Source of the DNA: Escherichia coli
Lineage (GTDB): Bacteria; Pseudomonadota; Gammaproteobacteria; Enterobacterales; Enterobacteriaceae
Direction: 5' to 3' (one strand)
Assembly: GCF_044324785.1 (NCBI RefSeq)
Contig: NZ_CP172127.1
DNA length: 64,000 nt
Shown here: positions 1 to 5,762 of the stretch, piece by piece
How the letters are laid out: every line of letters starts with the position of its first letter
Numbering within the stretch: the first letter of the stretch is position 1
Program-made: the position numbers and the translations under genes
Notes under the pieces: model-generated
Seen by the model: only the letters and a program-made list of their open reading frames with translations
The model's database searches: none
What the model was told of the DNA's origin: nothing

Positions 1-1038
1 TGCCCATTTTTGAATTCTATTGTATCGAGAGGGCAATGTGAATTTTTTAACTTGTTTGTAACATTCCTTTTGGAATTCTTGCTGATATTTTATTATGTCG
101 TTGTATGAAAGATTGTTTACCCTGGTCTCTAATAATTCTATTATTGTCGAAGCAATTTCCGCTTTTGCTCTTAAAGAGTTGTCATTAATGGTTAATAATG
201 TTGAAAATAAACCATTGATTTGTTTGTCAAGATATTGTTCATCTTTATGTAATTTTGTGATAGGGTATTCCTTATGTGAAAAAATAGTATCAAATAAATT
301 TGCATCAGTGAAGTTTACATTAAGTAGATCTTCGAAATAAAACCTTGACAAGGTTAGAACGAACCCGGACAGATCCTGTCCTGTCATATTGAAATCAATA
401 AAGTTGGTTCCAGCAAAGACTTTCATCTTGTTTTCATTTTCACTGTTCTCAATATACAACCTTATCATTTTTTGGTACAAGCTTTGAATATCTTTTATAT
501 CAGTTGGTAAATCAGTTCGTTGCCCAGAAAAATTTTTATTTTCGGAAGAAACGGTTTGGACACTGAATCTTACTGGTATTCCCTCTTCTACGAGAATTTT
601 AGTTATGATTGGCTTATTGGGCTTAGGATTAAAGACAACAATGATTTTAGATTCAGAGTTTTTATTCTTTTCGTATCTAATGTTATTAATCTGATTAAGT
701 ATTGATTGTGTCTGTTGCGTAAGTGGTGTCGAACTTATCGTTTCAATGTTATTAATAAGACTTACAAGTTGAGCCACAACTTTTGAGTAGTCTGCATTTG
801 TATATGTGGTGTTCGTGTGGCACGCATTAATTTGTTGGAATTGTTGTTGCGCTAAATCAAATTGTTCAGCGTTATATCCTTCTTCAGACAATGAAAAATT
901 AATGGGTTGCTGTTCTTCCTGATTATCACAAGGCCACATCGGTGTGTCTGGTGTTTTAACATTGTCGGTATCTGTTGTGCGGTTATAAATATCGCCGTGA
1001 TATGTATTTATCATACCTGGGGTAAAGTCAATTGACAT
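1..1038 (-). CDS. Partial CDS (N-terminal ~346 codons; 3' end lies beyond the window start) for an AT-rich protein with pentapeptide-like repeats; possibly the yhiS-position gene
   Basis: Reverse-strand frame is open from ATG at 1038 to position 1 with no stop; AGGA-type RBS precedes the ATG; absent from the ORF track because no stop lies in the window; translation contains [19 protein letters not shown]...[10 protein letters not shown] repeats. Confidence 0.55.
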
Positions 1039-1618
1039 AACATTCCTTATTGTTCATCTATTTCGCTAAATTTTTGTAAATCGGAGAATTAGAGCAGGAA
1101 TGGATTTTCTTCTACGCGGAAATAAACACAATGCGTCATATCTTCCTGATATAATTACCTTTAACTTCCCTTTCATTTCCACCCGGTAATATTTGTGTAT
1201 AAAAAAAGGGCAGTGATAGTATCGTAAAGGAAAACGTTAACAACTATCAAAAAGCGCTCATTTTAAAAAGTTATGATGTTCACCGATAGTGTGTGAAGTG
1301 ATATTTTTGTGATGTTTTAGATGTGTAATAATGAACCAGGTTAAAGTGTATTTAAAAATGTGTTGTATTGGCGACTGAAATCTGCCCTTTAAAAGGGGGG
1401 ATAGCACTGAGACAAAGAGACATTGCTTCTCCGATAAAATGTCAGAGAAGCATGATTGCGTGGTGATTGTCGATTGATGACTTACTGACGGATCCGTCAT
1501 CATTCTCAAAGCATTAGTTCAATCATTTGTGATTTTTAAGGATTATCCTGTCTATGATTTTCTACTTAGAAGGATATGGCACTAACTATGCATCTTATAG
1601 TTTACTGTCGGCATCTAT

Positions 1619-2620
1619 TTAAAATAGCATTTGAGTCAAATAGCCCATCAAGATAGCCATACCTAAGATAACCGTCAGGAATGCAACTATCATCGGTATT
1701 CTGAACATTGATTTAAGTAATATCACTTCCGTCAAACTTGCTCCGGCACTGCCGATGATTAATGCCATTAATGCTCCCAGACCCATTCCTTTTGTCATCA
1801 AAACAGATGCCAGAGGGATAATCGCCTCTGCCCGGATATACAGCGGAATTCCGACAACGGCGCTCAATGGGATGGCGAAGGGATTATCTGCCCCTGCATG
1901 AGCGGCAATCCACTCTGAGGGAATAAAGCCATAAATAAAAGAGCCTATTAATACCCCTAACAAAAGATATGGCAGTACATCTTTAAACTGTTGCAACGCA
2001 TCTTTGGTGGCTAGTTTTATGGGATTAATACTTACCACAGCTTTGGTACTGCAACAGTTTACTACAGGTTTCTCAATGGCTTTAGCCGCTGGACTACAGC
2101 AACTCGCTTTTATCGGCGTATATGTCGTCCCCGGCGAAGTTTTGGCTGGAGCACAACAATTTGCTGATGAGCTTTTACTGGCAATGATATGACGTTCAAA
2201 TCCCAGAGAATCCAGGATAATACTGGCAAGTACGGAGACGCCGGCGGCGATAATCGCGTACAACAAGGTAACTTTCCAGCCAAAGGTCACCCACATTAAC
2301 CCGACGATAATGGGATTAAGTAATGGTGAAACAAATAAAAAAGTGAGAGTCGGACCAAACCCGGCTTTCGCTGATAACAATCCACGTAACATGGGGATTG
2401 TCGAGCAACTACAGAACGGGGTAACGGCTCCCAATAGAGCAGCCAGGAGATAGCCTCTCCCTTTTCTGGCCCCCATCATCTGCTGGATTTTATGGTCTGG
2501 CACCTTTTGTCTTATCAGGCTGACACCGGCACTTATCACTATAAACAGCAAAGAAAGCTCGACGGCGAGAAACACAAACATCTCTGCGGCATCTTGCAGC
2601 ATCGCAAGCCAACTACTCAT
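1619..2620 (-). CDS. arsP: ArsP-like (DUF318/YraQ-type) permease, putative organoarsenical efflux permease
   Basis: Multi-pass hydrophobic protein with an exact TPFCSCSxxP motif (TPFCSCSTIP) and a Cys-rich central loop; start chosen at ATG 2620 (GAGG RBS at correct spacing) rather than the ORF-track start at 2632. Confidence 0.6.
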   Translation of the reverse strand: MSSWLAMLQDAAEMFVFLAVELSLLFIVISAGVSLIRQKVPDHKIQQMMGARKGRGYLLAALLGAVTPFCSCSTIPMLRGLLSAKAGFGPTLTFLFVSPLLNPIIVGLMWVTFGWKVTLLYAIIAAGVSVLASIILDSLGFERHIIASKSSSANCCAPAKTSPGTTYTPIKASCCSPAAKAIEKPVVNCCSTKAVVSINPIKLATKDALQQFKDVLPYLLLGVLIGSFIYGFIPSEWIAAHAGADNPFAIPLSAVVGIPLYIRAEAIIPLASVLMTKGMGLGALMALIIGSAGASLTEVILLKSMFRIPMIVAFLTVILGMAILMGYLTQMLF

Positions 2621-2726
2621 ACGTAACCTCATTGAATAAATCTATATTTCCAGAATAATCGAAATGAAATTCAGATCAAGATATTTCTGGTATTATCGAA
2701 ATATCAACCAGACAAAGGGGTGTCAT

Positions 2727-3023
2727 ATGCAGTTGGAAGAAGTTGCTAAAGCGCTGAAAGAGCTAGGTCACCCGACCCGTTTGTTCATATTCAAACACCT
2801 GGTCAAAGCGGGGGAACAAGGTTTGCCGGTCGGTGAGTTGCAAAAGCAGCTTGGGATACCCGGCTCTACACTCAGTCACCATATTTCAGCACTGGTATCG
2901 GTAGGGCTGGTCAAACAAAACCGTGAGAGTCGAACGCTGATGTGTGTTTCGCAATACGCAATGCTGGAAGCGATAATTGAATTCTTACGCGAGGAGTGCT
3001 GCGTAAATAGCAAAATTGCCTGA
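2727..3023 (+). CDS. ArsR/SmtB-family transcriptional regulator, second copy, divergent from the ArsP-like gene
   Basis: HTH region HPTRLFIFKHL...GELQKQLGIPGSTLSHHISALVSVGLV; cysteines are C-terminal (CVSQY, ECC) and the canonical ELCVCDL site is absent; start at internal ATG 2727 with AAAGGGG RBS. Confidence 0.7.
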   Translation: MQLEEVAKALKELGHPTRLFIFKHLVKAGEQGLPVGELQKQLGIPGSTLSHHISALVSVGLVKQNRESRTLMCVSQYAMLEAIIEFLREECCVNSKIA

Positions 3024-3145
3024 TGCGCTACGCGCTACAGATTTCATGCTATGCACGGTTTTGTACGTCGGATAAGACGCGTTAGCGTCGCATCCGACAT
3101 AAACAAAGCGCACTTTACCAACTATGGGCAGTGGATATCGCCGCT

Positions 3146-3571
3146 TTATTTCAACCGTTTACCCGCCTCATCAACCACTTTCTCGCCATCTTCCTTGGTG
3201 AACGCGCCTTGTTGCGCATTTGGCAGAATTTCCAGCACCACTTCTGAAGGGCGGCACAGGCGAGTTCCCAACGGCGTCACCACAATCGGGCGATTAATCA
3301 GAATCGGGTGCTGAAGCATAAAGTCGATTAACCGATCGTCAGTAAATTTATCTTCTGCAAGGCCCAGTTCCTCATACGGCTCGACGTTTTTACGCAACAG
3401 CGCGCGTACGGTAATCCCCATATCGGCAATGAGTTTGACCAGCTCATCGCGCGTTGGCGGTGTTTCCAGATAATAGATAATGGTCGGTTCTGTACCGCTG
3501 TTGCGGATCATCTCCAGCGTATTACGCGACGTACCGCAGGCCGGGTTGTGATAAATGGTAATGTTGCTCAT
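3146..3571 (-). CDS. arsC: Arsenate reductase (glutaredoxin-dependent)
   Basis: 141 aa, MSNITIYHNPACGTSRNTLEMIR..., recognised as E. coli ArsC. Confidence 0.95.
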   Translation of the reverse strand: MSNITIYHNPACGTSRNTLEMIRNSGTEPTIIYYLETPPTRDELVKLIADMGITVRALLRKNVEPYEELGLAEDKFTDDRLIDFMLQHPILINRPIVVTPLGTRLCRPSEVVLEILPNAQQGAFTKEDGEKVVDEAGKRLK

Positions 3572-5427: not shown

Positions 5428-5525
5428 GGACGTAAAAAAACCGACTTTGCGTCGGTTTTTTACTTCCCAGCCCTGAGTTGGTGGCTCTGGCTGGAGTGAG
5501 AGAGCTCTTATCTAACAGCTCAATA
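5428..5525 (-). ncRNA. agrA: agrA/agrB-type antisense sRNA repeat, copy 1 (which copy is agrA and which is agrB is uncertain)
   Basis: ~95 nt unit repeated at 5663-5762; on the minus strand it ends in a hairpin CCGAC-GCAAA-GTCGG followed by a T-run; unit is near-complementary to the dinQ 5' region at 5919-5953. Confidence 0.45.
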
Positions 5526-5662: not shown

Positions 5663-5762
5663 GACGTAAAAAAACCGACTTCGCGTCGGTTTTTTACTTT
5701 CCAGCCCTGAGTTGGTGGCTCTGGTTGGAGTGAGAATGCCATCATCTAACGCATCAATGCTA
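5663..5762 (-). ncRNA. agrB: agrA/agrB-type antisense sRNA repeat, copy 2
   Basis: Second copy of the same unit with the same terminator hairpin; position matches the K-12 arsR-gor intergenic dinQ-agrAB locus. Confidence 0.45.

Follow-up and report, generated by a model that had tools for sequence, protein, structure and literature searches.

By homology, the closest known system to the gene pair analysed here is SpArsR/arsP (Sput200_1227/Sput200_1226) of Shewanella putrefaciens 200. Two independent studies found its repressor, SpArsR, to be selective for methylarsenite (MAs(III)) (PMC11868830; PMC12124457), and in an Escherichia coli reporter 1 uM monomethylarsenite (MMAs(III)) led to 73% of full derepression, compared with 9% at 50 uM inorganic arsenite (As(III)) (PMC12124457). 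Our pair, a regulator and a permease of the ArsP_1 family, occupies positions 1619 to 3023 of a 64-kb stretch of E. coli DNA (contig NZ_CP172127.1, assembly GCF_044324785.1; the whole stretch is hereafter called the window) and lies directly past arsC of the arsenic resistance genes arsRBC. An earlier note on this DNA had proposed that the pair extends the locus to trivalent organoarsenicals. We find this to be the best-supported reading, with a function predicted from SpArsR/arsP orthology and from the operator: the two genes probably encode a methylarsenite-selective repressor and an organoarsenical efflux permease, which together would complement arsRBC. Inducers and substrates would chiefly be MAs(III) and probably also trivalent aromatics of the roxarsone type. 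This reading is favoured because of the orthology and an identical operator, more than because of the CSC motif of the permease. Here we establish the anatomy of the two genes, their orthology, the identity of the operator, the conservation of the cysteines, the distribution of the pair and the purifying selection acting on it.

Several other characterised proteins are informative for comparison. NdArsR of Noviherbaspirillum denitrificans HC18 is also MAs(III)-responsive and has the same Cys-X17-CysCys arrangement at the wing and at the end of alpha-5, but it is more distant in sequence and controls arsRM; it has been reported to respond also to dimethylarsenite (DMAs(III)), and more to As(III). 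AfArsR of Acidithiobacillus ferrooxidans (6J05) is a type-2 sensor of As(III) whose Cys95 and Cys96 align with Cys91 and Cys92 of the window regulator; it uses Cys102 as a third ligand, whereas the window regulator ends before that position. The type-1 ArsR proteins of R773 and of the E. coli chromosome, which carry ELCVCDL, share the ArsR/SmtB fold, and the window has its own canonical copy 2 kb away; their As(III) site in the DNA-binding helix is, however, absent from the protein encoded at 2727-3023. Regarding the transporter, ArsP of Campylobacter jejuni (about 315 amino acids) is to our knowledge the only ArsP whose transport has been tested, with efflux of MAs(III) and trivalent roxarsone (Rox(III)), and Chen et al. 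reportedly found in 2015 that it did not transport As(III). It belongs to the same Pfam and TCDB family as the window permease (PF03773, ArsP) and has a conserved C-x-C pair in a membrane helix (PMC6205960, PMC4435449). Moreover, E. coli K-12 MG1655 is reported to be MMAs(III)-sensitive unless it is given Campylobacter arsP (PMC11653729).

A divergent gene pair with a shared operator

Both open reading frames (ORFs) of the divergent pair that the earlier note had described next to arsC were recovered. The permease gene (1619-2620, minus strand, 333 amino acids), recognised by its ORF and by Pfam PF03773, lies about 1.05 kb past the stop codon of arsC, with the regulator gene and a spacer resembling repetitive extragenic palindromic (REP) elements in between. 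Its ORF extends from 2632 to 1619 (337 amino acids), and RefSeq starts a 98%-identical E. coli allele at the second ATG, at 2620, which yields the 333-residue protein; in the sequence, GAGG precedes this ATG. The regulator gene (2727-3023, plus strand, 98 amino acids) encodes an SpArsR-type ArsR/SmtB repressor according to Pfam, NCBIfam and its homology to SpArsR; its start is identical in the RefSeq annotation of that allele and is preceded by AAGGGG. The products of this allele are labelled merely "permease" and "ArsR/SmtB family transcription factor" in RefSeq. A divergent control region of 106 bp (2621-2726), as read from the sequence, separates the two genes.

For the comparison with S. 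putrefaciens 200, the SpArsR coding sequence and the arsP promoter were recovered from the biosensor construct in the supplement of PMC12124457; two reading errors in the recovered sequence were repaired by frame, and a database protein with 98% identity confirmed the result. Aligned with SpArsR over 92 residues without a gap, the regulator has an identity of 58% (E=3e-41). The permease shows 52.7% identity (E=3e-115) to the Shewanella permease encoded divergently from SpArsR and only 29% to a second ArsP_1 paralogue in the same island. Both pairs have in common the divergent two-gene layout, an identical 17-bp operator, the CSC motif, a loop with three vicinal cysteine (CC) pairs, and arsenic genes as neighbours. 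They differ in the length of the intergenic region (106 bp in the window versus 221 bp in Shewanella), in a 10-residue N-terminal extension of SpArsR, and in the nature of the neighbours, which are arsRBC in the window versus a low-molecular-weight (LMW) phosphatase ArsC, a second ArsR/ArsP_1 pair, thioredoxin and a glyceraldehyde-3-phosphate dehydrogenase (GAPDH)-ArsJ unit in Shewanella. The gene order on the Shewanella contig is glutathione synthetase, the 332-residue ArsP_1 permease divergent across the 221 bp, SpArsR, LMW-phosphatase ArsC, an ELCVCE-type ArsR, the second ArsP_1, thioredoxin, GAPDH and an ArsJ-like transporter of the major facilitator superfamily (MFS). Every sequence-level feature that we set for the SpArsR/arsP family is found in the window pair, which would place it in that family. 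Inducer selectivity has been measured for the Shewanella repressor, whereas the window regulator is known from its sequence; the selectivity that we ascribe to it is carried over from the literature on its orthologue and should be read as an analogy.

Two side observations concern the same Shewanella contig (L099, 4418-8496). The second ArsP_1 gene belongs to an operon of ELCVCE-type ArsR, permease and thioredoxin that is followed by the GAPDH and ArsJ-like MFS genes, and the glutathione synthetase gene adjoining the first permease is of eukaryote type.

The control region contains two operator-like sites, and nowhere else in the window is the operator pattern matched. Site 1, TTTCCAGAATAATCGAA (2647-2663), lies on the permease side at -80 from the regulator start, and site 2, TTTCTGGTATTATCGAA (2684-2700), at -43. 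An identical copy of TTTCTGGTATTATCGAA is present in the arsP promoter of S. putrefaciens 200 at an equal distance (~-42) from the regulator start, and the promoter holding this 17-mer was used in a working biosensor (PMC12124457). The same sequence recurs without change in Shewanella contig L099, Aeromonas, Citrobacter, Escherichia whittamii, an Enterovibrio and IncF/pESI plasmids. When up to four mismatches were allowed, a site was found in 72 of 86 regions upstream of regulator homologues, mostly at about -42, whereas of 696 control windows taken from those loci 9 had one. Furthermore, a second site 37-50 nt further upstream recurs in many related loci, and consensus -35 and -10 hexamers on both strands overlap the operator-like sites of the window. 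Binding of the regulator to both 17-bp sites is what we would predict, and its recognition helix (PGSTLSHHISAL) is invariant.

Cysteines of the regulator, motif and loop of the permease

The regulator matches the Pfam family HTH_20 (E=2.4e-14) and also HTH_5, and it scores above the cut-off of the NCBIfam metalloregulator subfamily NF033788 (61.9 versus 55 bits). In an AlphaFold model with a mean predicted local distance difference test (pLDDT) score of 93, helices alpha-1 to alpha-4, two strands and alpha-5 form the standard ArsR/SmtB winged-helix fold. The nearest solved structure is AfArsR, both by sequence (E=4.7e-10) and by fold (TM-score 0.89). The only cysteines are Cys73, Cys91 and Cys92, with none in the first 72 residues, which agrees with the earlier note that the regulator lacks ELCVCDL and carries C-terminal cysteines instead; ELCVCDL is present in the neighbouring canonical ArsR. 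Cys73 (codon 2943-2945, plus strand) is situated in the second wing strand (residues 70-75 in the model) and aligns with Cys83 of SpArsR. Cys91 and Cys92 (codons 2997-3002, plus strand) are located at the end of alpha-5, where the helix of residues 77-90 stops just ahead of them in the model, and align with Cys101 and Cys102 of SpArsR as well as with the AfArsR pair mentioned above. The three SpArsR positions were the same in the recovered and the database sequences. Among 121 regulator homologues of at least 65% identity, Cys73 is kept in all, Cys91 in 118 and Cys92 in 117. The C-terminus (...CCVNSKIA) ends six residues past Cys92 and therefore offers no counterpart of AfArsR Cys102. Assignment as an R773-type As(III) sensor was rejected, given the lack of ELCVCDL and of any cysteine before residue 73.

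According to the mechanism that we propose, a dimer of the 98-residue regulator would bind the two 17-bp sites in the 106-bp region and keep both the regulator gene and the permease gene repressed. MAs(III), for which two sulfur ligands are sufficient, would bind Cys91-Cys92 at the end of alpha-5 and thereby release the repressor. For inorganic As(III), which requires three, no further cysteine is in reach, so that it would be a poor inducer. The permease would then export the organoarsenical via Cys70-x-Cys72 at a break in a membrane helix, and its cytoplasmic loop with three CC pairs may capture the substrate. Together, arsRBC and the pair would provide cover against inorganic as well as methylated and aromatic trivalent arsenic.

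The reach of the third cysteine is the point at which a different inducer has to be considered. If Cys73 joined Cys91 and Cys92 of the other subunit in a three-sulfur site, the pair could be a second system for inorganic As(III) and trivalent antimony (Sb(III)), in which the permease backs ArsB. The invariance of Cys73 would fit such a site, and since Cys73 is found just before alpha-5 and Cys91/Cys92 at its far end, these residues could approach each other in an antiparallel dimer; moreover, the pair adjoins arsRBC, and ArsA/ArsD genes lie beside it in three loci. We nevertheless consider this highly unlikely, as SpArsR, despite having the same three cysteines, is barely responsive to As(III) (PMC13236881), and ArsB is already present.

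It appears more improbable still that the regulator senses thiol redox state or reactive sulfur, in the manner of BigR, SqrR and YgaV, and controls a permease for sulfur compounds. Among solved structures, YgaV and BigR rank second and third as matches of the regulator, GST-like (glutathione S-transferase-like) genes are found as neighbours in Vibrio, and there is a weak match to the BigR model; at 38.5 bits, however, this match is far under the cut-off of 155 bits, and membership in the BigR family was rejected. In BigR and SqrR, a cysteine in alpha-2 pairs with a C-terminal one (PMC8960804), and the window regulator, having no cysteine in its first 72 residues, is without it. The pattern of its cysteines matches that of the MAs(III) sensors instead.

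Regarding the permease, the earlier note had spoken of an ArsP-like protein, and a profile search bears this out with a full-length match to ArsP_1 (PF03773; E=1.1e-52; residues 13-334, model positions 3-293 of 294). The motif TPFCSCSTIP, which had been given at ~2402-2422, is present, although that range was slightly short at its low end; it spans 2393-2422 on the minus strand (residues 71-80 of the 337-residue ORF), and its cysteines are Cys70 and Cys72 in the numbering of the 333-residue protein, which we use for the residues named below. In an alignment of 59 permease homologues P68, F69, C70, C72 and P76 are invariant. Among representatives of the 150 nearest 50%-identity clusters, 95 were full-length, and 78 of these (82%) contain PFC.C, down to about 31% identity. 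The motif is therefore a genuine feature of homology and not a chance match, but it occurs across the whole family and is weaker evidence for ArsP than the earlier note had assumed. C(S/T)C has been described in all ArsP homologues, with "tPF" ahead of it in cluster 2 (Yang et al., PMC4435449), and the window permease carries this cluster 2 "tPF-CSC" signature. CSC is also the most conserved motif common to the SO_0444 copper/zinc exporters and SaoE (Haft, bioRxiv 10.1101/2022.07.06.499078). Since the motif is family-wide, it puts the permease in the superfamily and tells nothing about arsenic.

In the AlphaFold model of the permease (pLDDT 86.9), a disordered loop connects one helical half (residues 2-144) to the other (200-332), and CSC is placed at the break between helices 52-66 and 71-83. 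No solved structure was found by sequence search, and the best Foldseek hits were not significant (E=0.6; TM-scores 0.36-0.39 to INDY, YdaH and tripartite ATP-independent periplasmic (TRAP) transporters).

The shared motif raises the alternative that the pair is a sensor and exporter of general scope, directed at soft metals or organometallics that seek thiols (Cu, Zn, Cd, Hg, Sb or unknown electrophiles); its arsenic neighbours in Escherichia would then be one recruitment among several. CSC is a hallmark of the SO_0444 and SaoE transporters, which are also the best NCBIfam matches of the permease. Both scores are far under the curated cut-offs, with 108.9 bits versus 300 for SO_0444 (NF033936) and 85.3 versus 325 for SaoE (NF040736), so that assignment to either family was rejected; no genes of a Sao locus were seen nearby. 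These transporters share the superfamily and the CSC motif with the window permease, but their regulator partner and genomic context differ. A cysteine-rich loop, as described below, could also bind metals generically. On the other side, the regulator orthologue was MAs(III)-selective in both studies cited at the outset. On balance, we regard a general soft-metal exporter as unlikely, although it deserves to be weighed again with the genomic contexts described in the next section.

The central hydrophilic loop of the permease (about residues 145-199; 2024-2188, minus strand) contains the vicinal pairs Cys155/156, Cys174/175 and Cys189/190. It is net basic (eight Lys and Arg versus two Asp and Glu) and is predicted to be disordered (pLDDT ~50 in the AlphaFold model). 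Three CC pairs also occur in the loop of the Shewanella permease divergent from SpArsR. Among 49 permeases adjoining SpArsR-type regulators, 48 have at least two cysteines in the loop and 29 at least one CC pair. The loop would be located in the cytoplasm, and one may speculate that it takes part in substrate capture, in analogy to the vicinal cysteine pairs of ArsD; this role, like the transport substrate itself, is a prediction. The loop is moreover the hypervariable part of the permease, with insertions and deletions among the E. coli, Escherichia fergusonii, Citrobacter and plasmid alleles, and it is chiefly through its length that permease homologues span 322-402 amino acids. The CC pairs are mostly kept, two or three per allele, with two in Citrobacter and the pESI plasmid. 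No tandem repeats from which the CC pairs could have arisen were found at the DNA level.

Distribution, selection and genomic company

The pair is variable across E. coli, as the earlier note had claimed. It is present in 2222 of 5426 complete genomes, counted where at least 80% of window positions 1500-3150 matched in one place; the remaining genomes gave no match, or short matches to the end of arsC or to a repeat element only. We take E. coli K-12 to be without the pair, which was also the premise of the earlier note. The order arsRBC-regulator-permease is likewise found in E. fergusonii and E. whittamii, so that the simplest reading is an ancestral Escherichia feature that was lost in some E. 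coli lineages. The best complete E. coli genomes are 98.1-98.5% identical to the window, whether compared at the pair or across 14.7 kb with the core genes prlC, gorA, pitA and dtpB; since none exceeds this value, the source lineage seems to be poorly represented among complete genomes. In E. whittamii, the regulator is 99% and the permease 85% identical to the window copy.

Both genes are intact and under purifying selection. The ratio of non-synonymous to synonymous substitution rates (dN/dS) of the permease is 0.10-0.18 against three alleles. The regulator differs from that of E. fergusonii by 13 synonymous and one non-synonymous codon changes, and a similar synonymous excess, to about 10:1, was seen against the Citrobacter, plasmid and Aeromonas copies. 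It is therefore hardly credible that the pair is decaying and has lost its function in this genome, even though it is apparently missing from many E. coli lineages and its AT-rich neighbour is frameshifted in a reference strain: besides the intact ORFs and the selection acting on them, the operator and ribosome-binding sequences are preserved, and the pair has been kept in 2222 genomes.

The pair recurs with arsenic genes in five unrelated settings, which speaks against a general soft-metal exporter. IncF/pESI-like plasmids carry a module in the order permease, regulator, arsH, SigZ-like sigma factor gene and ArsD-like gene. It is matched by 731 plasmid records, many of them from poultry and pigs, and permease-regulator-arsH is complete in 250; "arsP" has already been reported on E. 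coli plasmids in one genomic survey (PMC13379246). The pair is accompanied by arsD and/or arsA in Aeromonas australiensis, Endozoicomonas and a Desulfobulbus metagenome-assembled genome, and a 36%-identical relative adjoins arsDA on plasmid pSSP1 of Staphylococcus saprophyticus.

Further details of these settings may be noted. Examples of the plasmid module are a pESI-like plasmid of Salmonella Infantis (locus L003, 3770-7038) and an E. coli plasmid (L002, 7334-9707); the surroundings include IS26, Tn3 remnants and macrolide-resistance genes, with erm(B) and mph(A) in one plasmid copy. In Citrobacter (L010-L012, 3230-9092), arsRDABC-regulator-permease forms the cargo of a lambdoid prophage; replication genes (DnaT and lambda-P) border it on one side, and genes for DinI, RusA, a holin and a lysozyme do so on the other. 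The genes arsD-arsA lie directly beside the pair in Endozoicomonas elysicola (L059, 4363-8294) and A. australiensis (L022, 8756-10983). The proximity of arsD-arsA to an ArsP_1 permease fits an old proposal according to which permeases of the ArsP type can team up with the ATPase ArsA (PMC6205960).

A wider set of 80 species genomes with a regulator homologue of 59-99% identity shows the limits of this association. The permease adjoins the regulator in at least 50 of them, mostly in divergent orientation, and most marine relatives carry the pair alone. In favour of a general soft-metal exporter, most homologous pairs are located away from ars genes, and genes for SigZ-type sigma factors, Cys-tailed GST-like proteins and MAPEG-like proteins often follow the regulators. 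Such neighbours suggest a larger regulon than a sensor and a pump.

The SigZ-family sigma factor has a terminal cysteine cluster and adjoins the regulator in 16 species (NF007215, 241 bits versus a cut-off of 212). In 15 of these, all Vibrio and relatives (L030, L032, L035-L037, L046, L048, L051-L053, L063, L075, L082, L088 and L091), its gene shares the strand of the regulator and comes after it or overlaps it; in Pseudoalteromonas (L076) it lies on the opposite strand. Genes for a GST-like protein whose tail is Cys-rich and for a small MAPEG-like membrane protein often come next.

One could go further and regard the family as being, at root, a widespread gammaproteobacterial stress module for thiol-reactive organometal(loid)s or electrophiles, of which Escherichia and mobile elements would have retained the sensor and pump alone and docked these to ars operons. 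The small regulon of a C-X17-CC repressor may in this case comprise a Cys-tailed GST, a MAPEG-like protein, a SigZ-type sigma factor with a Cys cluster, and an ArsP_1 exporter whose poly-CC loop, like ArsD, captures the substrate. The E. coli pair could then have inducers other than arsenicals as well, and the loop would represent a new kind of in-cis metallochaperone domain. We consider this origin rather doubtful.

The assignment as a methylarsenite-selective repressor with an organoarsenical efflux permease thus remains the one we favour, and several observations weigh against it. Identities of 58% and 53% to the Shewanella proteins guarantee neither the same ligand nor the same substrate. 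The S. putrefaciens permease was apparently named by homology, the promoter and repressor alone having been tested. The placement of the permease in the ArsP family is argued from its Pfam profile, from CSC and from genomic context, and CSC is shared with the copper/zinc exporters and SaoE. Cys73, being invariant, must serve something that the two-ligand model leaves unexplained. Promoter-like matches in the consensus scan were at chance level (three found, 3.4 expected), so that repression of both promoters is a prediction. Furthermore, arsA, arsD, arsC or arsB occurred within 8 kb in only four of the 80 loci (the probes excluded Acr3, ArsM, ArsI and ArsJ), and in Aeromonas and many Vibrio the pair stands by itself or in the company of SigZ-type, GST-like and MAPEG-like genes; these pairs away from ars genes leave room for a broader thiol-reactive inducer. 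Finally, in the literature available to us we found no experiment on this protein pair, and no paper describing it beside E. coli arsRBC.

Should the assignment hold, a defence against methylarsenite and aromatic arsenicals that K-12 presumably does not have would be present in about two fifths of the E. coli sequenced so far, as well as in E. fergusonii, in E. whittamii, in some prophages of Citrobacter and in hundreds of conjugative IncF/pESI-like plasmids from poultry, pigs and people. This would bear on the co-selection of resistance plasmids by arsenical feed additives, on the competition with arsenic-methylating anaerobes in gut and soil, and on how K-12 differs from wild E. coli. The pair would also supply a native E. 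coli repressor and operator for MAs(III) biosensors, and the operator motif together with the C-X17-CC signature gives simple rules for naming the regulator family. While it may not surprise an arsenic specialist, the assignment is a useful and testable annotation of chromosomal genes that RefSeq leaves unnamed.

Neighbouring genes and other features of the window

The neighbouring genes were identified as arsRBC, in agreement with the earlier note, and all three score above the curated NCBIfam cut-offs. The glutaredoxin-dependent arsC (3571-3146, minus strand) reached 305 bits, arsB (4894-3584 as an ORF, minus strand) 730 bits and the canonical As(III)-sensing arsR (5281-4928, minus strand), in which ELCVCDL is found, 231 bits. 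The REP-like spacer between the stop codon of the regulator and that of arsC (3024-3145) is 122 bp long and holds a palindromic element, and its stretch at about 3062-3099 has matches at many scattered sites in E. coli genomes.

On the other side of the pair, an AT-rich ORF (GC content 34%) of at least 346 codons is cut by the start of the window (<1-1038, minus strand). Its product is rich in Gln, Asn and Thr and is without an obvious domain. At the corresponding position left of the permease, E. coli TUM14771 has an annotated frameshifted hypothetical protein, with slp and dctR further out.

An Rfam scan gave no match within the permease/regulator pair and detected two copies of the AgrB antisense RNA family (RF02891), both upstream of arsR in the dinQ region. 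They are located on the minus strand at 5432-5515 and 5666-5749, with scores of 104 and 100 bits, respectively.

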